A stretch of 64,000 nucleotides of DNA, from positions 1,408,001-1,472,000 of the forward strand of contig CAWCYD010000003.1 of the NCBI GenBank assembly GCA_963799775.1, given 5' to 3'. The stretch is from an uncultured archaeon (GTDB lineage: Archaea > Thermoproteota > Nitrososphaeria > Nitrososphaerales > Gagatemarchaeaceae). This document shows positions 1 through 8,977 of this stretch, in pieces; within the stretch, counting starts at the first letter, position 1, and every line of letters begins with the position of its first letter. A program made the position numbers and the translations under genes. Below the pieces are notes generated by a model, which was not told the origin of the DNA, made no database searches, and saw nothing but the letters and a program-made list of their open reading frames with translations.

Positions 1-95
1 ACAACAATAAGGACAACCAGTGGCACGACAATCTTTGACCATGGCTTGCGCCCTTTACTTGTCTCTGGAAGCAAAACGCTCGCTGAAAAATCCAT
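1..95 (-). CDS. N-terminal part of a putative membrane/secreted protein, running off the left edge
   Basis: ATG at 95 reads MDFSASVLLPETSKGRKPWSKIVVPLVVLIV (basic residues then a hydrophobic stretch); same strand as and just downstream of the 159..1408 gene. Confidence 0.45.
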   Translation of the reverse strand, partial: MDFSASVLLPETSKGRKPWSKIVVPLVVLIV

Positions 96-158
96 GGCGC
101 TATCAGAAAAGTCGTAGCCTCGCCCTAGAAATGTATCATCGCTGATGTCCGCTTAGAG

Positions 159-1408
159 TTAACAGCTGTACTCGACAGCGAAGAAGCCGGTGCAACTGCT
201 ACTGTTGTAATATTCTGTGAAAGTGCCATAGCTGTAACCCATCGGCTCGCTCATCGAAGATGTTGCTGTGTTCTGGTAACCACCATTGACCATTTCAGTA
301 CCGTGCCCCCAATCACTAAGATAATTAGGGTACTGGTCGAACTTGGTTCCAGTTCCAGTTCCCATTTCGAGGTCCGTAAAAGTAACCGTCGAGAATTTTG
401 CCAGTATATAGGTACCTTCTGTCCCTGCAGGCTCCTCGACCACGGTATCCGCATAGTGCGGGACAGCAGCTAAGCTATAATCATCAGTGCAGGCTTGATT
501 ATTGTACTCGTTGATGACGTCCACGAAGTAGTCGCTTCCTGACATGCTAAATTGGGCATTAGATCCGGTCTGTGCGTAGATGTGATTCCCCGCGCTCACC
601 GTTATCCCACAGTAATTGATACTCGGTTGCTGGCCAGCACCGTTATCACCGCCGTAGAAGTACTCGGTAAGGGCTGTATCTTGTGTTGTACCTGTGCTAG
701 AAGTATAGTTCCCTTGAATCCCTCCCCGAACCAGTACATTGGTCCCTCGCCAAAGATAGTCTGTGCCAAAGTATGTGCCATTTTGTAACCCGGTCCATTC
801 GTCAACCAGGCACTCGGTAACATTATCCTGTACCTTTGACCAGTAGCAGCCGCTCGAAATCGAAGAAAGTGTAGGAGTGCTCCAATATGCCGCTGAGTAA
901 GTCACTGTTACGCTAGAAGGGGTAGAGGCATTGGCCACATAAAATCCTCCTTGATAATCTACATCGCTTACAGGTATGCCCGAGGCGGATGCATACCCGT
1001 GCCTTATGACATTGTATACCACTCCCGACGTGGGATTCACCGTCATTGTTAGAATGTATACATCTTGTCCATCCTTTTGAAGCAAGAAGTTCGCGGCGGC
1101 ATCGTGCCAAGTGACGGTGCAGTTTGTAGGATTAAGGTTCCAGTCGTTGTCGAAGCCCATAAATGTAGAGTTGTAGCCGGAGACCGCGTTCTGGTATTGG
1201 GGTGACTGAGCCGCAAAAGTCTGCACTGCTGCGAAACTGACGATGTTATTCTCGGATCCCATCTCAGACGCAAGCTTCAGCGGTGTGCATACGGCAAATG
1301 TGTCCGCCATAGCTGTTCCGGCAGTTAACAGCATCGCGATGGGAGAAATCACCAACAGAAAGAGAAGCGGGATGCTGGCAGGCGGATGAAGGAACCGATG
1401 ACTTTCAT
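159..1408 (-). CDS. Secreted G1 (glutamic/eqolisin, Peptidase_A4)-like peptidase
   Basis: Signal peptide ending TAMA; G1-like motifs WTGL, TVSAGNHI, ADTVVEEP, LAKFSTVTFTD. ORF track starts at 1355; ATG at 1408 joins with a 1-nt indel in an A run. Confidence 0.6.
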
Positions 1409-1896
1409 GGATAACTCTTGCTGGAGACTCTTCTATTAAAAGTTAGTGTTTACACTGTAATACAGTACAATAATTCATGCGGAGTCGAAATATATTTCCT
1501 TCTAATCGTCTTCGACGATCGTCGTCACGCGAAATGATCCTTCAGCATAAACTCGGAATCAGGTGGTCGACCTACCTGCGGAGCTTTCTCTCGGGAGCTT
1601 ACGAGTTAGAGTCGCATGGACGACTCACCGTACACATCACAGGCACGTTCATAACAGGCTGAGCAGCCAGCAGCCAAGGAGACACTTTTGAATAACATCG
1701 GCCAAAGCCATGAAAAAAGATACCCCTCCAATGGGTGTATCCTGTTGTAGGCCTGTTTTCTTCAGAATAGCTCAATTTATCCCCTTTCCCTCCCCCCTTC
1801 ACGCGAGCCCATAGCAGTAATACGTGTACACACCCGGGCATCCGCTCCGTATTGGGGAGAAGCACGCCGCAATCGGGTGTTAAGGACACTCGAGCG

Positions 1897-2733
1897 TTAG
1901 CATTGGACGGAGCTTGAATAACTGAATGATTGGTCCCAGTAAGTGGCAATACCGGAGCTGTATTCGCTCCAGCAGCCGTAATACATGTTAGAACTTTCAG
2001 CCGTTCCCACGTAGCTCGGAGAGCCCCAATAGTTGGTGAGGTCGTTTGAACTTCCAGCATACATGGTGCCGCTTCCGGAACTGAAGTCGGCAGTAAGGTT
2101 GTTCATCCCGCACCAACACGGATTAGATCGGAGCCAGTACCAGTCGCCATATGTCTCAGGATAGAACGAGCCGCTCGTACCTCCAGCGCCGCTTCCGCCT
2201 CCGTTGACCGACCACGTTATCTCGTCGACATAGCCGCTTGAGTCTGTCCATTCGTCGATATTGTATGGAGCTCCGCTTGTGAGAGCGCCGGTAACCTGGG
2301 TCCCGGAACCAGAGTCGTCCTTCTCAGCTACAAGGGCGCCAGTGTTCGTGTTGGCTACGTAGAAATAGTATATGATTGCCGGCGGGGAAACCTGGAAGTC
2401 TTCAGCGATCGAGAATTGCAGCCAGTCTGCGTTTGTCTGGTACGAATTGGATTCGGACACGTCTGGATTATATTGTAAGGTGAATGTATCATACCCAGTT
2501 TCGCCCGAGCTTCCTACAGTCCCAGCCATGTTTGAGGACAAATCCGAGCTAATGTAAGCATCGCCACTTGTTATGATGCAATCATTCGTCGATGAGCAGT
2601 CAAACTCACCGTCGCCATTCCCATAATAGAACCCATCTGAAGCTGGCCATGCCATCGCTTTGGCTACAAAGGCTGATGAAACGAGCAGCAGCCCAATAGC
2701 GCACGCGCCGACCAAGACAAGACTATGCCGCAA
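1897..2733 (-). CDS. Secreted thermopsin-like (peptidase A5-like) protein
   Basis: TTG start at 2733 overlaps the upstream stop; signal peptide ending AKAMA; motifs FTLQYN, WLQF, GTAESSN resemble thermopsin SLQLN / YWxQN / TAE motifs. Confidence 0.45.
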   Translation of the reverse strand: MRHSLVLVGACAIGLLLVSSAFVAKAMAWPASDGFYYGNGDGEFDCSSTNDCIITSGDAYISSDLSSNMAGTVGSSGETGYDTFTLQYNPDVSESNSYQTNADWLQFSIAEDFQVSPPAIIYYFYVANTNTGALVAEKDDSGSGTQVTGALTSGAPYNIDEWTDSSGYVDEITWSVNGGGSGAGGTSGSFYPETYGDWYWLRSNPCWCGMNNLTADFSSGSGTMYAGSSNDLTNYWGSPSYVGTAESSNMYYGCWSEYSSGIATYWDQSFSYSSSVQC

Positions 2734-3550
2734 CTTTGATCCCCTGGCCCTGGATGTACAGTTGAACCGGCACCTGGGTGGCATTCGCCAACAGATTGCT
2801 CGGAAGCGAAGTGGATATGGCGGCAGCTCCCGTTGTTTCGTAGGACTTGAGCGTCCCGATAGGAGCAACCTGGACCCAGATTGGAGAGTTCGTGTATGCG
2901 GTGAAAGTTATCACAGAACCCGCGGCAAGAGAATTACCCAATTGTACCGCGACACCCGGGGTTTCGTTATCGGCGGTAAAGTTGGCCATCAGTTGATTCC
3001 CTGATATCACGGATGGTTCGCCGATCATTGTTGCCGCTTGGGCGTGGCTGTTTCCCAAGCGCTGGGTCATATGGGCCACAAGATTGCCATTCACATACAG
3101 CCCCATGTAGAGAGTGGTATTCGCACTCACGTCGTAGGGAAGGACATTGATGTTGACCGATAGTTCACCGGTGATACCTTGCGTTGTATTATGACTAGAG
3201 GAGACAAGCACGTTCGCAGGCATCTGCCATCCCTGAAAGCCCGCCGATGACAAAGTCATGCCAGGGGTGTTTCCGAAAAAGTAGAAGTCGCTTGGAGGAG
3301 GCAGAGCGAAGCCAGTGGATAAACTGCTACCGTTACTGGGAATACCATTAGGCGTACCTATCTCGGTTCCTCCAGACTGGCTGGCAGTCGAAGTAGCTGC
3401 GCTGGCATTCGTATTAGTTGCGATCCCATCTCCCTTGGACCCAGAGTACAGAAGATACGAGGAGGATCCAATCGCTGCAGCGGCGACCAAGAGAATTGAA
3501 AGTAGCGCGGACCTCGCTACTCCGGGTCTAGATGCCGCTACTAGCTTCAA
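2723..3550 (-). CDS. Membrane-anchored/secreted hypothetical protein
   Basis: N-terminal hydrophobic helix, Ser/Thr-rich linker, beta-rich body; TATA-like TTATATA upstream near 3575-3581. Confidence 0.7.
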   Translation of the reverse strand: MKLVAASRPGVARSALLSILLVAAAAIGSSSYLLYSGSKGDGIATNTNASAATSTASQSGGTEIGTPNGIPSNGSSLSTGFALPPPSDFYFFGNTPGMTLSSAGFQGWQMPANVLVSSSHNTTQGITGELSVNINVLPYDVSANTTLYMGLYVNGNLVAHMTQRLGNSHAQAATMIGEPSVISGNQLMANFTADNETPGVAVQLGNSLAAGSVITFTAYTNSPIWVQVAPIGTLKSYETTGAAAISTSLPSNLLANATQVPVQLYIQGQGIKVAA

Positions 3551-3699
3551 TCACCCATGCTTAGCTCATAATAGTATATAATGTCAGGAGAATGTGACAT
3601 CCGGGATTTATTATCACGGTAGATTGTTACAGAAATGCGTTCCAGGCTTGGAGTCTTGAATCCAATGCCTTCTTCCGATGAGGGGTTAAGCCACTCTTC

Positions 3700-3999
3700 T
3701 TACTCTTCAATGGTAGACTTCTCTTCGTCTAGAAGGTCCTGGTATTTCTTTAGCCATCTCCTTCCTTTTGCAGTTATTGCGAATGTCTTCCGCCCTTCGC
3801 TTGAGGTAACGAGACGTATGTACCTGCCAGCCGCCAGCCTCGCCAAGTAGACTCCTTCAGCATCTCTATTCAGGTTGCAAGAAACCATTAGTCTGTGGGC
3901 CGTTGCGTTCCCCTTAACCAAGCATTGTAAAACGTCAGCTTGGATTTCTCTCCATACTCGCTTCTTGCGCTTCCCGGCCACCAACGCAATAATTGCCAA
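3700..3999 (-). CDS. Winged-helix regulator (HTH_45-like)
   Basis: ADVLQCL..ATAHRLMVSCNLN...FAITAKGRRWL pattern; paralogous to 17305..17595 and 24356..24640. Confidence 0.75.
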   Translation of the reverse strand: MAIIALVAGKRKKRVWREIQADVLQCLVKGNATAHRLMVSCNLNRDAEGVYLARLAAGRYIRLVTSSEGRKTFAITAKGRRWLKKYQDLLDEEKSTIEE

Positions 4000-4129
4000 A
4001 TACGTGAATCAAGGCGGCGATGTTTAAGGTTATTCCGTACGTTCACCCCAGCAACGCGACGGGTAGTCCGAGAAGCTACCTTCTTTTCGTCAAGAAGGCC
4101 CGATTTCTCTTCGTTTTCTCTCCCCCCTC

Positions 4130-4343
4130 TGGCGAGCCCATAGCAAGCAACACCCCTGCGAATCGAGCGAAGCGAGAATGAGCGGCCCCGCCCCGAAGCG
4201 GGGCGAAGGCGAAGTCCGAGCGGAGCGGCGAAGAGGGGGAAGCGAAGCGAGCGCAGCGAGCGGTGCCGAAGGCATCGCGGGGGGTGAATTCGCCGCGGGG
4301 CGAAGGACGAGCCTGAAGGGAGTTGCTTGCTATGGGCGAGCCA
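4130..4343 (+). other. Highly structured non-coding element (candidate single-strand origin or transfer origin)
   Basis: Perfect 16-bp inverted repeat GCCCATAGCAAGCAAC (4136-4151) / GTTGCTTGCTATGGGC (4322-4337), extended by tandem GA pairs; interior has about eight CGAAG copies plus GC-GGA-GC and GC-GCA-GC mini-hairpins. Confidence 0.7.
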
Positions 4344-4359
4344 TGAGCTGGCGCCCACG

Positions 4360-6252
4360 TCAGCGTTGAGGCGTCCCTGCCGGTCCTTTGAGGAACTCCG
4401 CGAGCGTTGTCACCGTAACCCTGGGACTCTTCAGAGAGCTGTATCTGCCGCTCGCCGCCAAGTCCGAGTTTGGAACGACGACGAAGAAGGGTTTGGTAGA
4501 ACTGAGTCTTGAGATGCGCTCCTCAAGGTCGCTCGTCCTCGTCTTCAGCCCCGTCTCGATCTCGAAGTACGCGCTCTCCGTCTCGACATCGGGCAGGCTC
4601 TGCCCCGGGTCTGCAATGCTGAGAACCTGGTCGCTGTTCTCCCGCAGCCTATCGACGAGCTGCCTTACCATGTACTTGTGAAGGTTGCTGACCTTCTCGT
4701 CCCCGCCCTTTGGGAAGTACAGGACGACCGTTCCTCCAGGTTCCGTGCCGTCGTACTTCATCCGCTGAAGCTCATCAGCGTTGACCAGCCTCTCTAGGGC
4801 GTCTCTGACCTTCAGTTTCGCGGAGTCCTTGTCCACTCTCCCGTCCTTGCTGAGCTGGCTTGCAAGGGCAGACACCCAGACGACGCCTTCCTTGGCCAGC
4901 GCTTGCTTGACCGCTTTATCGTAGTCCAGGGCCTCGGCTTCCTGGGGGAGCGTTACCGCTAGAAGTTCGCACAAAGCGGTGGGTCGGGTCTCCTTCTCGC
5001 TTTCCGGAACGAATGTGTAGACCTCGATCTCTTTGTGAATAATCTTGGATTTTGCGTCCACGCAGTGGTGCTTCAAGAGCCCAGACACAGTCCAGGAGAG
5101 CATGGGGTCGATTGTCCTCAGCGCCTCAAGGTCTGACTTGGACGAGGTGTTGAAGACGAACTGGGTGGCGAACTGGTTCCTGATCCTGTCCTCGATGTCG
5201 GTGTAGTTCTGGGTAGAGGTCCAGAGGGCTCCTCGCGTCCTTATCTCCCTCGCCATCTCGACGAGGACCGAGTGGTACTTCTCGAAAGTGCCCCGGGTAA
5301 GGCGGTGCGCCTCGTCCACGTATAGGATAATCTTCTTCGCTCCCGTCGTCTGCCCTTGCATCTCGTTCCATATCCCTCTGAGGAGCAACTCCGCGTAGAA
5401 TGTCTTCGCGGGGTCCGATAATCTGGAGAAGTCGAGCACGACGTCCATGCCCATGCGGATGGCCTGGTTGATCGCGTCGGGCCTAGTCCCACCATCTTCA
5501 AGCCGAACAGATTTGGCCTGCGCCTGGATGAAGAAGAGCGCCGAGAGCTGCACCCTGTCCTTGGTCTCGCCTATCCTGCGTTCGGCGTTTCGGCTGAAGT
5601 CCTTCCAGGACGTGCATCCGTAAGCGAGTTCTTGGACGAGGGAAGGGATCTGGCTCGCCGTCACCCCGATGGTGCTGACCGGAAAGGCAATCGCGAAGGC
5701 GCTCACGAAGGCCTCGATGTCCGTGAACGGGTTGGGGACAAGCTCGCTTACGTCGGCGACAGGATACCCGATCTTGAGGTGCGTGTCGTTCACCTTGAAC
5801 GAGAAGACGACCTTCTGCTGCCCCTCGAACTTTCGGAGGAGGAGCCTGACCAAGCTGCTCTTCCCAGCCCCTGAGGCCCCGCTCGTGAAGACGTTCGCGT
5901 TCTCCTTGCCCTCGATCCTCTTGACCTCGTTTATCCACTTGAACCTGAATTCCTCGTTCCGGTATGGCTCCGACTGGGACTTTTCGCCGGAGTTCCTGTG
6001 GACGAGCCTGAGTATTCCGACGTGCCCTGGAGTCGGCTTCTGCTCCTCATGGTGAAGGGGGTTCCAATAAAGCAGGCCCGACGTTGACTGGTATCCTATC
6101 TCGTCTCTGTCTACCCCGTACTTGGCCTCAAGCCCCTTCCAGCGCTTCTCCTGTTCTTGCGCTCTCCTCGCCTCCTCGTCCTGTTCACGTTGCCATCTCC
6201 GCTGCTCCTCCTGCTCCTCTTCCCTCCTCTTCTTTGACTTCCAGAGGTTCAA
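4360..6252 (-). CDS. HerA/FtsK/VirB4-superfamily ATPase with a C-terminal PD-(D/E)XK-like domain
   Basis: Walker A GASGAGKS, Walker B LYVDEAH, STQ and RNQF motifs; C-terminal LH...PDVE...FEIETG; likely TTG start overlapping the upstream stop. Confidence 0.8.
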   Translation of the reverse strand: MNLWKSKKRREEEQEEQRRWQREQDEEARRAQEQEKRWKGLEAKYGVDRDEIGYQSTSGLLYWNPLHHEEQKPTPGHVGILRLVHRNSGEKSQSEPYRNEEFRFKWINEVKRIEGKENANVFTSGASGAGKSSLVRLLLRKFEGQQKVVFSFKVNDTHLKIGYPVADVSELVPNPFTDIEAFVSAFAIAFPVSTIGVTASQIPSLVQELAYGCTSWKDFSRNAERRIGETKDRVQLSALFFIQAQAKSVRLEDGGTRPDAINQAIRMGMDVVLDFSRLSDPAKTFYAELLLRGIWNEMQGQTTGAKKIILYVDEAHRLTRGTFEKYHSVLVEMAREIRTRGALWTSTQNYTDIEDRIRNQFATQFVFNTSSKSDLEALRTIDPMLSWTVSGLLKHHCVDAKSKIIHKEIEVYTFVPESEKETRPTALCELLAVTLPQEAEALDYDKAVKQALAKEGVVWVSALASQLSKDGRVDKDSAKLKVRDALERLVNADELQRMKYDGTEPGGTVVLYFPKGGDEKVSNLHKYMVRQLVDRLRENSDQVLSIADPGQSLPDVETESAYFEIETGLKTRTSDLEERISRLSSTKPFFVVVPNSDLAASGRYSSLKSPRVTVTTLAEFLKGPAGTPQR

Positions 6253-6431
6253 TTCGTAGACTCCTCTCTGAGAATCGTGAGCCACGTCGCGAGCTTCGGG
6301 GGGTAGTCCCTGGCCTCCAGCGAATCAGGCTCTGACAGCAGCACCTTGCGCAGAATCGAATCACTCGGCAGAATTTTCTCTGCCAGCCTTTTGAGCGGTT
6401 GGAGGTCCAGTACCACGACTTTCTGCTGCAT
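6249..6431 (-). CDS. Small (60 aa) hypothetical protein coupled to the ATPase
   Basis: ATG at 6431, MQQKVVVLDLQPLKRLAEKILPSDSILRKVLLSEPD...WLTIL; its stop overlaps the ATPase start. Confidence 0.65.
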   Translation of the reverse strand: MQQKVVVLDLQPLKRLAEKILPSDSILRKVLLSEPDSLEARDYPPKLATWLTILREESTN

Positions 6432-6525
6432 GGTATGTAGTATGGTGGGCCGCGATGATAGACGCAGAGAATGAATCTGAAAGCGCAGATTCTGAGCCCT
6501 TTGATTCCTTACAATTTCTTCAGAA

Positions 6526-7059
6526 TCAGTTGGGCTTTTGAAGCATAATTGAGAGAACTTCTCTCCTTCGCTGCCTGGCCATCCAAACAAACACGGAGAG
6601 GAAGAACGCCTCGATTGCCCCAGCTGAGACCGTGAGGACAAGGACCGTGAAGAGGTACGACGGGTACTGTGCGTAGGCAGGATATAGCGAAATGCCGATA
6701 ACCGCTCCGACAATCAGGCTTATCCCGACCATGATACCCATCTCGACCAGCCCCACGGCATTGAAGAAGTTCCCCAGAGCCCTCCTGCCTTTTTGAGTCA
6801 GCGCGTAGGAGTTGGCGTCCCTATCAGGCAGATTGTCTCCAAGCAATCTGATGTAACCATAGTTGAGAAGGGCGGGATACGCATAATTCGTGATCGTGTT
6901 CTCGGGGATTCCTAACTCCTTTCCCAGCTTCTCGGCGGACGATTCCCTGTTTCCTCTCTTCGAGTTATCGAGGTAGGCCAGGACCTTGATCCAATTCAGA
7001 GTGAGGTCTCCCATCCTCTCAACGCGAAACCGTCTCTTCAGAGATTCGAGTGCCATCAC
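6526..7059 (-). CDS. Membrane-tethered winged-helix regulator
   Basis: HTH (AEKLGKELGIPENTI), wing YALTQKG, two C-terminal TM helices. Confidence 0.7.
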   Translation of the reverse strand: MMALESLKRRFRVERMGDLTLNWIKVLAYLDNSKRGNRESSAEKLGKELGIPENTITNYAYPALLNYGYIRLLGDNLPDRDANSYALTQKGRRALGNFFNAVGLVEMGIMVGISLIVGAVIGISLYPAYAQYPSYLFTVLVLTVSAGAIEAFFLSVFVWMARQRRREVLSIMLQKPN

Positions 7060-7143: not shown

Positions 7144-7551
7144 CTAGAACCACGGGCCAAAGACCCACGTAGGGATTACGAAGTCTATCACGAGAAGGCC
7201 GAAGAGGATCACTATCATCGACTCGATGATGCCGGTCTGCTCAATCGACTTGGACGCCTCGTACTCCCGCTTTATCTCGCGCGCAGACACTTCGCGCTCG
7301 ACGTAGTATTGGAAGACCTCCCGAGGGTCGTCGTATTTGTCGGGGCCTAAAGCATCGTAAAGGGTCCTCTTCTCGGCGTCTGACAAGACGAGATAGGCCT
7401 GAGAGACTTCCTGGAACTTCTCCTCTGCATCCGGAGACTTGTTCCTGTCGGGGTGATACCTGACGGCCAGCCTCCTGTAGGCTTCCTTGATTGTTTCTCT
7501 CGATGCCGTCCTCGCAACACCAAGGACATCGTACAAGTCGTGCCTTTGCAT
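7144..7551 (-). CDS. J-domain (DnaJ-like) protein with C-terminal TM region
   Basis: DLYDVLGV...[15 protein letters not shown]...[17 protein letters not shown]; HPD motif intact. Confidence 0.9.
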
Positions 7552-7561
7552 GCTTTCGCCC

Positions 7562-8839
7562 TCAGAACGGCACCTTCACTATCGCCCCGCCGTCAGGGAG
7601 CGACGCCACGTACTCGTATCCCTGCCCTATGTAGGAACTGACCTCCTGCACCGGGATTACCTTCTGCCTGGAGCCGTTGCCCGTCATCATGCCGACCAGC
7701 CTCTGCCTCACAGTGTTCTGCAGCTCCTCGTCGGTCATCTCTTCGAGGTTCATCCTCTCGACCTCCTCCTTCTTGAATCCCGCGACAACGAGAAACTGCT
7801 CCCGCAGCGCCTTCTTGATCTGCTCCTGGCTCGAAGAATCGGCTTTGGTGCTAGAAAGAAGGGACTCGCATCTCTTGTAGGCAGCACGCATCTCCTCTAT
7901 CATGTCCGGCGGTAGTCTGCCCTTGTTGGTCGAATACCTTGCTTCGATATCGCCTTTGTGCCCCATGAAGAACTGGCGCCACGGATGGGAGATGGATCCC
8001 TTCGACTCTGCGATGTCGAAGGCCGTGCCGCAGTAGGATCTCAGCACGTACGGCCTCCAGGTGAACCCTGCCTCCTTCATAGCGAGCTTGACCTCCCACG
8101 AGAGCTTCGTCGTCCGCAGGAAAGCGAGCTTGCTCCCCTCCCTCACATGGGTGATTACGGGGGTTTCTGCGTCCAGCTTCTCCCCACTCCTCATCCTTGC
8201 CTCGAAGTATTCCTTGAGGTACTGGCATCCTTCCTCAGGCAGGAACGAGAAGTACTGGTGCCGGGCCTTGCTGAGCGTCTTCCTCACCATCACGATGGTA
8301 GGAACCTTGGTGAACTCCACGGTACGCTTCTTGATTTCGAGCTCACGCAAATCGCCGAGCCTCAAGCCGTCAGTGCCCAAGTAATTAGCGAGGCTCTCTG
8401 GTCTCAACCCCGAAAACGCCATGAACGCGGCAATCGTCCTCGCCCTCGGGTCGCAGTGCCTGAATATCTGGGCGAGCTGCTCCTTCGTCGGCACGACCTC
8501 GTCAACGTAATCCGAGGTGGGGAGCTTGATCTTCTTGGTTATCTCGAAGCCGTGGTGCCCCAGCCAAGACTTTATCGTCGTTAGGTTGTTCCTGGCCTGG
8601 GCGGGCTTCTCCCCCTTTGCAAGCGACCTGTCGACATAGTCCATGATGAAGTCGTCGAAGCCGTCAGGCGAGGCGCGCTTCTTCTCGATTATCTCCCTCG
8701 GGCCGAGCTCCGTCACAATGCAGAACCTACCCAACCGCCTGAGTCTCTCTTCCGCTGTGATGATGCTTCCCCTTGCGAGGTTGTCATACCATCTCTTGAC
8801 GTCCGGTTCATTCAGCAGGTGCTTGTGCCTCGGTTTCAT
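7562..8839 (-). CDS. Tyrosine recombinase/integrase
   Basis: SGLRP (catalytic R), YVLRSY, FMGH, ARY (catalytic Y); starts 47 nt from the tRNA-Gly 3' end. Confidence 0.92.
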
Positions 8840-8885
8840 GCCCCAGCGAGGTAGGGCAACGAATGAATTTAAACTTAGTTAAAGG

Positions 8886-8977
8886 TGCGGTCGCCGGGAT
8901 TTGAACCCGGGCTACCAGCTTGGCAAGCCTACACGCCCATTGAGGCTTGATGTCCTACCAGGCTAGACAACGACCGC
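8886..8977 (-). tRNA. tRNA-Gly(GCC) with a 19-nt intron at position 29/30 (8929-8947)
   Basis: Acceptor GCGGTCG/CGACCGC, T arm CCGGG-TTCAAAT-CCCGG; splicing restores TCAGC-TTGCCAA-GCTGG; strict BHB G-ACAT-CA^A-GCCT...GGGC-GTGT-AG^G-C. Confidence 0.93.

Follow-up and report, generated by a model that had tools for sequence, protein, structure and literature searches.

A conserved folded non-coding element of small tyrosine-integrase islands at tRNA genes in soil archaea, a candidate single-stranded DNA signal or structured RNA

Introduction

The single-strand origins (sso) of rolling-circle plasmids are strand-specific, folded and orientation-dependent. At integron attC sites and at the folded attP of CTX phage, a tyrosine recombinase works on an imperfect inverted repeat of which one particular strand, the template for the adjacent genes, takes up the fold; the R-box of attC has the consensus RYYYAAC/GTTRRRY. 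In ColE1-type replicons the origin is primed via a transcript R-loop. To our knowledge, neither transfer of single-stranded DNA (ssDNA) nor rolling-circle replication has been described for the archaeal group considered here.

The mini-hairpins GCGNAGC and CCGAAGG are reported at the G4-type primase origin, at the RepB' ssiA and in the single-strand promoters of phage N4, and the RNA form r(GCGAAAGC) is given a melting temperature of 39 C, far under that of the DNA form (PMC13037366). On F-type plasmids, the early genes of the leading region are read from the transferred single strand via Frpo, a single-stranded DNA promoter (PMC11541004). The same loop logic was applied in the opposite direction to the STAXI motif, a repeated bacterial pseudoknot whose UUCG loops were taken to favor RNA (PMC2864571). 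Small integrase-bearing islands at tRNA genes, arranged in tandem arrays and without recognisable replication or virion genes, are described as cryptic integrated elements of Thaumarchaeota (PMC6563490).

Here we analyze a 64,000-nt stretch of archaeal DNA (the window), in which an earlier note had described a folded 214-base sequence downstream of an ATPase gene and read it as an ssDNA signal. The observation is confirmed, with structure beyond chance, and the element is the conserved non-coding core of small tyrosine-integrase islands at tRNA genes in one family of Nitrososphaerota-labelled soil archaea. The islands share the features of the Thaumarchaeota elements listed above; the main text of that study, its supplementary tables aside, uses "non-coding" or "noncoding" 0 times and mentions no conserved non-coding structure (PMC6563490).

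Results

A folded non-coding element with covarying helices

The element and the sequence that always precedes it occupy the following positions.
4130..4343, + strand: structured element, short type (helices in the sequence, inverted repeat, covariation)
4060..4129, + strand: conserved pyrimidine-rich leader (alignment of 26 leaders)

The short type consists of a closing stem with tandem G.A pairs (P1), a 5' hairpin (P2), an invariant hairpin (P3) and a long purine-looped arm with distal hairpins (P4), and every helix listed in the earlier note was found where that note had placed it. The closing inverted repeat (4130-4155 / 4318-4343; 26 nt, 162 nt spacing) is 88% complementary. Folding energies were compared with those of 200 dinucleotide-preserving shuffles. 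The + strand reached -113.1 kcal/mol under RNA parameters (shuffles -87.5 +/- 4.3, z -6.0, 0/200 as good) and -57.5 kcal/mol under DNA parameters (shuffles -45.2 +/- 3.4, z -3.7, 0/200), while the - strand reached -100.6 kcal/mol under RNA parameters (z -5.2). In this comparison of DNA with RNA parameters, which the earlier note had proposed, the larger z under RNA parameters counts for an RNA and against ssDNA. The composition is 65-67% purine, and unpaired positions are nearly all purines. The stretch is a real, strand-specific, folded non-coding element; because close copies differ by 1-2 nt in length (214, 215 and 216 nt), a conserved reading frame is excluded.

Related elements of 215-260 nt are present on soil metagenome contigs and, within one archaeal family, in 24 of 97 genomes, as found with a covariance model of 112 positions of the 5' half, which under-samples fragments holding only the 3' part. 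A loose sequence-pattern scan of genome contigs returned 119 stretches, five of them with the element; a pattern scan of viral contigs gave 0 matches, and no similar DNA was found in phage and plasmid collections. Rfam 15 at gathering thresholds gave 0 matches in the whole window and 0 in five further loci with copies, STAXI included, and at E up to 10 only sub-threshold, chance-level matches were obtained for 3900-4600.

Standard pairs filled 97.5% of the 809 pair cells in 15 copies, compared with 91.7% after shuffling and 29-37% with slid partners. Both sides changed at 12 pairs in these copies, and the covariation score was reached by 0/500 shuffles. When 27 copies from three genera were compared, compensatory changes were seen at 17 of the 50 predicted pairs. 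In 24 of the 27 (alignment read by eye), both arms retain the 2x2 GA/GA loop at the P1 base; the flanking stem positions covary, and on the - strand the loop would read as a TC/TC mismatch. The earlier note had proposed a test for covariation preserving both GA pairs and GNA loops; the pairing and the GA/GA positions were preserved, but GNA loop identity was lost in the sister genus. G.U pairs occupy 13 of the 809 cells, and the 27-copy table holds 26 G.U versus 18 A.C cells by our own tally (one loop-closing and one doubtful pair excluded), an excess that is a weak strand signal.

The outer closing stem is the most sequence-conserved part, being invariant in 14 same-genus copies whose interiors are ~70% identical, and it is block-swapped in the sister genus (CCCATAGCA/TGCTATGGG to CCTGCACCA/TGGTGCAGG). 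The variable boxes of P1 read AAGCAAC/GTTGCTT, ATGCAAC/GTTGCAT or AGCCGAC/GTCGGCT. One strand has >10 GCGAA/GCGAG words, and there is also a conserved GGGGGGAGGG run. As a separate observation, the C-run of the leader could pair with the central G-run in every copy, and both runs are invariant.

With terminal inverted repeats of 22-26 nt and several copies per genome, the element could be taken for a selfish repeat (a MITE-like palindrome), or else for a chance or coding feature, and we regard this group of explanations as very improbable. This 2.47 Mb genome has only 3 full copies, each at the same fixed place and in the same orientation inside an island; they are 68-70% identical yet keep their pairing, and no target-site duplications were found at the ends of the copies inspected.

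Small integrase islands at tRNA genes

The islands measure 3.6-7.3 kb and carry 16-bp att direct repeats, a 425-aa tyrosine integrase, an optional ATPase and secreted-protein cargo; in the smallest (3.6 kb), the integrase is accompanied by two secreted proteins only. Every island gene lies on the strand opposite to the element, and the + strand is the template strand for all of them. The element is part of mobile DNA, a context absent from the earlier note. The window lies within a tandem array of decayed islands, with these features around the element.
1720..1817, + strand: solo fragment made up of the leader and, through GCGAGCCCATAGCAG, the initial 15 nt of P1
1897-2868 and 2723-3550, - strand: cargo ORFs without a family match
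3700-3999, - strand: cargo, winged-helix protein
4360..6285, - strand: HerA/VirB4/DndH-like ATPase, 641 aa, an optional island module
6249..7059, - strand: two small overlapping ORFs (154 and 177 aa) between the ATPase and DnaJ-domain genes, weak TIGR02230 match only
7144..7551, - strand: DnaJ-domain protein, 93% identical to the copy in the second island of the genome
7562..8839, - strand: tyrosine integrase, 425 aa (phrog_1 integrase, E 1.9e-11; homologues named 'site-specific integrase')
8884..8977, - strand: tRNA gene, the integration target, abutting the integrase gene

The integrase is of the tyrosine type expected of a tRNA-targeting island; its catalytic residues were read by eye, Pfam gave no match at E 0.001, and phmmer against solved structures gave none. 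The 13-mer of the 3' end of the tRNA gene recurs as two repeats ~16-17 kb leftward, and because of this repeat the left border of the window's own island is ambiguous. In the two other islands of the genome, a 16-bp core (GTGGGCCGGAAGGGAT) with inverted arms is present at both ends, one copy lying within a tRNA gene, and att sites at both ends were likewise found in three relative or metagenome loci (islands of 4.3, 5.0 and 7.3 kb). Direct att repeats that include a tRNA 3' end are a property of these islands, and integration via such ordinary duplex sites counts against an ssDNA role of the element.

The arrangement recalls attC and the folded attP of CTX phage, with which the element shares a conserved unpaired spacer and a variable interior. 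It is 2-4 times longer than these sites, and unlike them the islands recombine at a duplex 16-bp core at the tRNA 3' end; the AGCCGAC/GTCGGCT box of P1 lacks the AAC/GTT of the R-box, and the recombination site is elsewhere. The 3' junction of the element, GAGCCTGAAGGG, is similar to the att core GGGCCGGAAGGG, and one truncated copy is joined to an att site exactly there.

Solo fragments retain the leader and break near CCCATAGC, and the one at 1720..1817 was left behind by an older island of the tandem array. In two copies the arms of P1 do not match each other. For these junctions, an integron-like exchange of cassettes at P1 was considered and rejected: one hybrid copy is also mismatched in P4, which points to a central crossover between paralogues or an assembly chimera, and tandem integration followed by deletion also explains the junctions. 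A guide RNA of the omega-RNA or bridge-RNA type was likewise rejected, as no TnpB, IscB or IS110 gene is present and two islands of the genome have the same att core yet different P1 boxes (ATGCAAC and AGCCGAC).

The polar words, the conserved run and the likeness of the 3' junction to the att core are also what a duplex-DNA site would offer. FtsK-type translocases are guided by polar words, and the optional ATPase is of the FtsK/HerA class; the GCGAR and G-run words and the inverted repeats would then be bound by the integrase, as accessory sites, or by the winged-helix tail of the ATPase. We consider this improbable. A duplex site does not require the covariation that keeps 17 nested pairs intact, and the arms of P1 consistently differ at the GA/GA positions and are therefore not symmetric binding sites.

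Loop chemistry and strand polarity

Mini-hairpin words were defined as xCGNAGx' with a complementary outer pair, and the window copy was scored against 2000 dinucleotide shuffles. It holds 5 such C-GNA-G words (shuffles 1.09 +/- 1.0; 6/2000 reach 5). Counts in 15 copies of the same genus come to 57 for the + strand and 2 for the - strand, and the density of the words in the elements is 15.9 per kb, compared with 1.74 per kb per strand over the whole genome. Composition accounts for part of the enrichment: a long-type copy reaches only 3 words against 1.07 expected (164/2000 shuffles reach 3). When hairpins with 3-bp stems were scanned, GNRA made up 3/61 and 0/27 of the candidate tetraloops and UNCG 0, and C-GAA-G was seen 17 and 6 times.

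The hairpin loops are thus of the DNA-stabilising rather than the RNA-stabilising kind, as the earlier note had claimed. Its statement that nearly all loops are GNA holds for the window copy and its genus, but not for the sister genus, where the equivalent hairpins have AAG, AGG, GTA, AAC, TTA, TCA, GTCA, GCCA or 7-nt loops and loop shortness alone is retained. The strand specificity of the G.A contacts stood as well: GA/GA becomes TC/TC on the - strand, and the words are nearly confined to the + strand. Because tandem G.A pairs are conserved and loops are purine-only, the alignments show an element that would act as a folded single strand of + polarity, as ssDNA or as RNA. The tandem GA steps do not form kink-turns (L7Ae-type), which are defined by a three-nucleotide bulge followed by tandem G.A / A.G pairs; by inspection they lie in symmetric 2x2 or 3x2 GAA/GA loops with no conserved 3-nt-bulge geometry.

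This polarity bears on a message-borne role of the - strand, in which the element would stabilise or terminate the integrase or ATPase message from its 3' UTR or give the cargo operon a structured 5' UTR. In favor of such a role, the - strand carries all genes and folds well (z -5.2), and the element is placed between a gene's stop codon and the cargo operon. Against it, GA/GA would turn into UC/UC in such a transcript, the loops into pyrimidine triloops, which are not known to be stable, and the sister-genus wobble pairs into A.C mismatches, and only 2 mini-hairpin words would be present against 57. We hold this role to be improbable, slightly more so than a duplex site.

Transcription signals around the element

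The cargo block (1897..3999, - strand) is downstream of the leader on the opposite strand, and the leader may hold the promoter or 5' UTR of these genes because it sits upstream of them. The element itself may be a structured non-coding RNA gene of the island, a reading to which we give serious but incomplete credence. It would run rightward from the leader, divergent from the cargo operon and convergent with the integrase or ATPase gene, its fold forming a stable protein-binding or sensing domain; without a terminator, antisense read-through into the 3' end of the neighbor would damp expression, or the RNA would act in trans.

Strong covariation over a multi-helix fold favors an RNA gene, and so do the absence of ssDNA enzymes from the islands and the tolerance of wobble pairs on the + strand (in the sister genus, TGGTGCGGG and TGGTGTGGG opposite CCTGCACCA). 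Most conserved, covarying intergenic structures prove to be RNAs, which also counts against ssDNA, and purine-rich internal loops (GAA/GA, GA/GAA, GGA/GGA) are found in protein-binding RNA rods as well. In the genus of the window, P1 is preceded at ~36 nt by a weak (A/G)ATAGC box similar to the GGATAA/GCTTAAAT boxes that this genome's tRNA genes carry at about -30, and some copies have a TTCTTTTC run directly after P1; both are consistent with transcription.

Against an RNA gene, the upstream region in the sister genus yielded no conserved TATA-like box, whereas such a box stands near -30 of tRNA genes in this genome, and the CAATTC box, itself conserved, is ~10 nt nearer P1 in the sister genus. 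Oligo-T runs of >=4 after P1 were read by eye in about 5/27 copies, and most copies lack a terminator. The convergent neighbor is either the integrase or the ATPase, therefore no constant antisense target exists. GNRA and UNCG loops are almost absent and 3-nt loops closed by C-G dominate, G.U pairs are rare, a closing stem that is the most sequence-conserved part is unusual among RNAs, and there is no Rfam relative.

The ATPase and the gene neighborhood

The C-terminus of the ATPase has a winged-helix-like region and a conserved D566/E575/E577/K581 (D..ExE..K) tail, a putative nuclease. Its predicted model (mean pLDDT 85) has a HerA-type fold, the top Foldseek matches being HerA, the DndH C-domain and VirB4 (E about 5e-11 to 1e-10), and the Walker A and B motifs (GASGAGKS and VDEAHR) are invariant or nearly so among homologues. 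The gene is convergent with the element, its stop codon 16 nt from P1. The ATPase gene that the earlier note had placed beside the element adjoins it in about half of the copies only; many lack an ATPase, and it is the integrase with which the element is associated. Of 18 full-length copies from the same genus or from metagenomes, 15 have as their next 3' gene either the integrase or an ATPase with the integrase behind it. The 3' neighbor is always convergent, with its stop codon within ~20 nt of P1 in the copies read.

The earlier note had recognised no HUH Rep or relaxase in the window, and none was found among its island ORFs. More broadly, searches of Pfam, PADLOC, NCBIfam and PHROGs found no Rep/HUH, relaxase, primase or ssDNA-binding gene in any island examined, so the islands show none of the enzymes that mark a replicon with an ssDNA stage; several island ORFs have no match at all, which leaves room for a novel enzyme. 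The public sequencing runs listed for the locus were DNA only (three low-share runs from one study, available as contigs, depth ~1-10). No ssDNA or circular form was seen in them, which is counted against an ssDNA signal, and their sole joint, from 4341 to 4535, skips 193 nt of the 3' end of the ATPase gene and looks like a relative's shorter gene.

Discussion

We tentatively read the element as a cis-acting ssDNA processing, priming or transfer signal, a mechanism preferred only marginally to that of an RNA gene; that the nucleic acid of the folded strand is DNA is inferred. Once the island has been excised and is unwound, nicked or transferred, its + strand would fold into a rod with hairpins, made of G-C pairs, sheared tandem G.A pairs and C-GNA-G or other 3-4 nt loops. 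The sequence-conserved closing stem would be recognised by a DNA-processing protein, possibly the adjacent HerA/VirB4-like ATPase with its putative nuclease tail, acting in cis or supplied by a sibling island or helper, or else a host primase. Translocation, packaging or complementary-strand priming would then start. In a variant of this mechanism, a G-rich transcript would form an R-loop, and the displaced, folded + strand would be a primed origin as in ColE1-type replicons.

Several lines may be counted for the ssDNA signal. The retained GA/GA and purine-rich unpaired positions show its + polarity, and the enrichment of C-GNA-G and the scarcity of GNRA and UNCG loops point to DNA, as do, by analogy, the loop parallels in the literature and the rarity of G.U pairs. 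The conserved outer stem resembles protein-recognised DNA hairpins. The few T-runs, the TATA-like box absent from the sister genus, and the neighborhood of an integrase and a translocase-type ATPase are consistent with this reading, and the position of all genes opposite the folded strand fits it by analogy with Frpo. Counted against it are the absent Rep, relaxase and primase, the lost GNA identity, the compositional share of the enrichment and the tolerance of G.U, together with the lack of any ssDNA transfer or rolling-circle replication known from this archaeal group.

The strand-specific fold and DNA-type mini-hairpins of a single-strand signal are present, more weakly in the sister genus. 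Like the G4-type primase origin, the ssiA of RSF1010 and the sso, the element is strand-specific, non-coding, extensively folded and orientation-dependent, and has GCGNAGC / CCGAAGG mini-hairpins (PMC13037366). Those initiation signals belong to replicons that encode a Rep or primase and whose ssDNA stage is proven, whereas no such gene or stage was seen in the islands; the present element is larger, multi-branched and archaeal, and its GNA loops are not kept across genera. Both it and Frpo fold on the template strand, upstream of neighboring genes in the direction of transcription (PMC11541004). Frpo mimics a bacterial -35/-10 duplex, whereas no TATA-like duplex was found in P1, and no conjugation apparatus or relaxase was identified in the islands. 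With STAXI the element shares the setting of a conserved structure by integrase or DNA-handling genes in mobile DNA, for which RNA versus DNA is argued from the loops (PMC2864571).

It is possible, though doubtful, that the element is the first cis-acting ssDNA signal known from an archaeal integrative element, namely an origin (215-260 nt) at which processing, transfer or priming starts and which consists of sheared G.A pairs and mini-hairpins. If so, integrase-only islands would pass through an ssDNA stage without an HUH relaxase or Rep, served in trans by a HerA/VirB4-type ATPase-nuclease or a helper.

Small archaeal integrative elements persist and spread although they lack genes for replication, virions or conjugation, and this family of islands is a compact and tractable case in which to ask how, with one integrase, an optional ATPase with a putative nuclease, variable secreted cargo and one large folded element. 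An ssDNA signal would mean an unrecognised ssDNA step in archaeal gene transfer or replication; an RNA would represent a new class of large structured RNA with an unusual G.A-rich architecture in a little-studied archaeal lineage. Either way, the covariation model allows these islands to be found and counted.

The fold of the element

Features of the window
4060-4129 (+), leader
4130-4343 (+), the element, a 214-nt folded structure
4360-6285 (-), HerA/VirB4-like ATPase gene
7144-7551 (-), DnaJ-domain gene
7562-8839 (-), tyrosine integrase gene (425 aa) beside the tRNA gene
8884-8977, tRNA gene adjoining the integrase gene

Re-reading the sequence at 4130-4343 bore out the earlier note, which had described a long closing stem enclosing hairpins with GNA triloops and tandem GA mismatches. 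The inverted repeat of the closing stem (P1) has 26-nt arms that are 88% complementary and 162 nt apart. The + strand folds to -113.1 kcal/mol with RNA parameters (shuffles -87.5 +/- 4.3, z -6.0) and to -57.5 kcal/mol with DNA parameters (shuffles -45.2 +/- 3.4, z -3.7), with 0/200 shuffles as good in either case; for the - strand the RNA value is -100.6 kcal/mol (z -5.2). The architecture is unusual: its G-C and sheared G.A pairs are stacked, its loops consist of purines only, and it has three UGAA linkers. The tip of the long arm (P4) carries either of two sets of distal hairpins, which define a short and a long type.

Consensus fold of the element
P1, closing stem; a 2x2 GA/GA loop lies close to the base
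P2, 5' hairpin, GC-GA-(GC or AC)-loop-(GC or GT)-GA-GC
P3, nearly invariant hairpin
P4, long arm broken by GAA/GA, GA/GAA and GGA/GGA purine loops

Mini-hairpin words were defined as C-GNA-G plus one further complementary pair; the window copy has 5, where dinucleotide shuffles average 1.09 (5 or more in 6/2000). The 15 same-genus copies hold 57 on the + strand and 2 on the - strand, and the density in element copies is 15.9 per kb, compared with a genomic background of 1.74 per kb on each strand. The excess is weak in a long-type copy (3 vs 1.07; 3 or more in 164/2000 shuffles), so the signal is partly one of composition.

Distribution of the element

The window's genome (2.47 Mb, three contigs) has three full copies, mutually just 68-70% identical, and several fragments retaining the 5' end only. 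By blastn the element was found in 8/22 other genomes of the genus and 0/18 beyond it. A covariance model covering 112 positions at the 5' end detected it in 24/97 genomes of the archaeal family, the window's own included (8/22, 14/55 and 1/6 in three genera, 0/13 in seven others), and outside the family gave one weak match (E 6.5e-4) in an even sample of 126 genomes of the order. A pattern scan of metagenome contigs yielded 14 loci, seven with full-length copies (two of these duplicates) and the rest truncated or ended by the contig edge. The island hosts are labelled by their sources as Nitrososphaerota, Nitrososphaerales or 'archaeon' metagenome-assembled genomes. No matching family was found in Rfam, no similar DNA in phage and plasmid collections, and no match in a pattern scan of viral contigs.

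Covariation and the strand that folds

Across 15 same-genus and metagenome copies, standard pairs fill 97.5% of 809 pair cells, compared with 91.7% in shuffled controls and 29-37% when partners were slid. Both sides change at 12/54 pairs, and the observed covariation score was reached by 0/500 shuffles. After 13 copies from two further genera were added, compensatory changes were seen in 17/50 predicted pairs, seven P1 positions among them, and in the wider alignment the P1 block CCCATAGCA/TGCTATGGG is swapped for CCTGCACCA/TGGTGCAGG. Two copies (L013, row G004b, and L008, row G008) have P1 arms of unlike types; one is mismatched in P4 too, which indicates either that paralogous elements have crossed over or that the assembly is chimeric.

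The wobble pairs weakly support the + strand, with 13 G.T vs 5 A.C cells in the 15-copy set and 26 vs 18 in a 27-copy table from which the loop-closing pair (17 vs 3) and one doubtful pair were omitted. Conservation of the non-Watson-Crick positions is the stronger argument. In the alignment GA stands opposite GA at the P1 base in 24/27 copies, the GA/GA module is also present within P2 and the distal hairpins, and the unpaired bases are nearly all purine (purine content 65-67%). The G.A contacts are strand-specific, as had been claimed, the same positions being pyrimidine-pyrimidine mismatches on the - strand. Because the P1 arms are kept different at exactly the two GA positions, a symmetric duplex binding site is not expected. 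From the GA/GA conservation, the purine loops and the arm asymmetry we infer that the element works in folded, single-stranded form with + polarity. Every gene of the islands is on the - strand, which makes the folded strand its template.

A DNA or an RNA strand

A cis-acting single-stranded DNA signal is our tentative preference and a non-coding RNA a serious contender, effectively a tie, with the remainder shared by a duplex site, a role in - strand mRNA, and a selfish or chance feature. The DNA reading is supported by the hairpin loops, which are short, closed by C-G and frequently GNA. A naive scan of hairpins with 3-bp stems, which also counts local hairpins outside the consensus fold, gave GNRA in 3/61 and 0/27 candidate tetraloops, no UNCG, and 17 and 6 C-GAA-G. 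In a review, GCGNAGC/CCGAAGG mini-hairpins are placed at the G4-type primase origin, ssiA and the phage N4 single-strand promoters, and the RNA version is described as melting much lower, at 39 C for r(GCGAAAGC) (PMC13037366); where Weinberg et al. discuss STAXI, the loop argument is applied in reverse (PMC2864571).

The chief point for a non-coding RNA is that no gene or observation indicates a single-stranded DNA stage. Prior experience with conserved covarying structures also favours it, as do the RNA z-score, which exceeds the DNA one, wobble pairs in the sister-genus P1, a weak (A/G)ATAGC box that the window's genus has at about -36, and, in some copies, a TTCTTTTC run past P1. The GNA loops that the earlier note had emphasized are indeed frequent in the hairpins, but their identity is lost across genera, which again favours RNA. 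Against this, G.U pairs are scarce, the outer P1 is the most conserved sequence of the element, and a T-run past P1 is missing from most copies; no TATA-like box lies upstream in the sister genus, whereas tRNA genes of the window's genome have one near -30.

By analogy, the element would in its working be most like single-strand initiation signals, Frpo, attC-type folded sites or a STAXI-type integrase-associated motif, but it does not match the defining features of any of them.

Genes of the islands

The element is carried by small mobile islands at tRNA genes. The integrase matches phrog_1 (E 1.9e-11), and its homologues (2899 with E <= 1e-5 among 8000 scored candidates) are annotated 'site-specific integrase' by their sources. 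Apart from the element and its leader, the smallest island of the window's genome (~3.6 kb) has only the integrase and two further proteins, which bear signal or anchor sequences and stretches rich in Ser/Thr. A DnaJ-domain gene, small ORFs and a 641-aa ATPase are present in addition in the window's island and in a second one of the genome. The predicted structure of the ATPase (mean pLDDT 85) best matches HerA, the DndH C-domain and VirB4 (E ~5e-11 to 1e-10), with profile matches to AAA_22, mad8/HerA, partial VirB4/TraC and a PHROG 'terminase large subunit' family. D566, E575, E577 and K581 in its tail are invariant or almost so, and the tail fits the putative nuclease named in the earlier note. 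That note had recognised no HUH Rep or relaxase, and none matched in any island ORF scanned; nor did a primase, polymerase or capsid family. Many of the ORFs had no match of any kind.

The element had been placed directly beside the ATPase gene. This holds for some copies, but gene order indicates that its constant partner is the integrase. In 15/18 full-length same-genus and metagenome copies the integrase gene follows on the 3' side of the element, either directly or after the ATPase gene, and the adjoining gene is on the opposite strand every time; two of the others are one sequence twice (another gene, then an integrase fragment) and the third has a flank of just 288 nt. In the sister genera the integrase stop codon lies 7-12 nt past the element in 8/13 copies.

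The DnaJ-domain genes of the two islands (the second at L023 12183-12653 (-)) are 93% identical, while their integrases are 56% and their ATPases about 38-49% identical; this gene appears to be a mosaic module, exchanged recently. The second ATPase (L023 9109-11025 (-)) is broken into two ORFs (513 and 124 aa) and is probably a frameshifted pseudogene. DNA contigs from two sequencing runs join 4341 to 4535, omitting 193 nt of the ATPase 3' end, probably from a relative whose gene end is shorter.

Decay of the element

In truncated copies it is the 3' part that is gone, with the leader and the 5' part retained; copies or solo fragments of this kind number at least 16. Just one 3'-only fragment was found, in two loci; these are under-sampled, since the search model spans the 5' half only. 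Breakpoints of the solo fragments fall within 5 nt past CCCATAGC in 4/6. We read the pattern as deletion within tandem arrays plus selection for the leader, which precedes cargo genes; a hot spot at the hairpin base is possible.

One solo leader fragment, distant from the three islands (contig 3, 96206 (-)), breaks after GCGAGCCCA and precedes a cargo gene start homologous to that beside window 1720-1817. In two genomes (L177 and L178, 1501-1715) the element interior is inverted relative to the leader, with the leader in reverse complement on the other side, the arrangement that recombination of one P1 arm with the other would be expected to produce; 170 nt away is a piece of the 3' end of another copy. 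Neither the truncations nor the inversion bear on the choice between DNA and RNA.

Islands and their att sites

Among the three loci of the window's genome, similarity runs far past the element, to a 40-nt motif at one end and a tRNA gene at the other. A 16-bp att core (GTGGGCCGGAAGGGAT), flanked by inverted arms GGATTCTCTTAA / TTAAGAGAATCC, is directly repeated at both island ends and in one island is the 3' end of the tRNA gene. Loci from relatives and metagenomes contain islands bounded in the same way, with lengths of 4.3, 5.0 and 7.3 kb.

Positions of the att-side motif GCAATTAATTATTTAAG on contig 3 of the window's genome (absent from the window)
1342056, 1392187, 1394720, 1404441, 1406888 (+)
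51453 (-)

This motif is strongly TATA-like on both strands, and in an excised circle would face the integrase gene over the att core, ~77 nt upstream of its start codon; expression of the integrase from a GCAATTAATTATTTAAG promoter might therefore be confined to the circular form. At L150 6881-6920 a truncated element copy is joined straight to an att motif at the common letters GAAGGGATGC. The 3' junction of the element, GAGCCTGAAGGG, is similar to the att core GGGCCGGAAGGG and may thus serve as a secondary site for recombination.

A 13-nt repeat of the window's tRNA 3' end has two copies 16-17 kb leftward, and the stretch from there to the window is a tandem array of decayed islands. It contains four copies of the other att motif, four solo fragments (the leader plus the first 7-19 nt of P1, including window 1720-1817), and repeated paralogues of two secreted-protein families. 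Contig 3 positions 1393001-1408000 (L021) and window 1-1355 hold a tandem array of secreted-protein paralogues amid att and leader remnants, one family of ~270-290 aa and the other, which is Peptidase_A4-like, of ~390 aa; a PIN/MazE-type toxin-antitoxin pair lies at L021 6740-7427.

In the literature covered, supplementary tables aside, the sections consulted (including those of PMC6563490, PMC13037366, PMC2864571, PMC11541004 and PMC11213015) describe no relative of the element, and related islands may be listed in the supplements. Tandem arrays at re-used att sites are described for Thaumarchaeota in PMC6563490, as is a large class of 'cryptic integrated elements', which are small and sit at tRNA genes. 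The islands add new members to this known kind.
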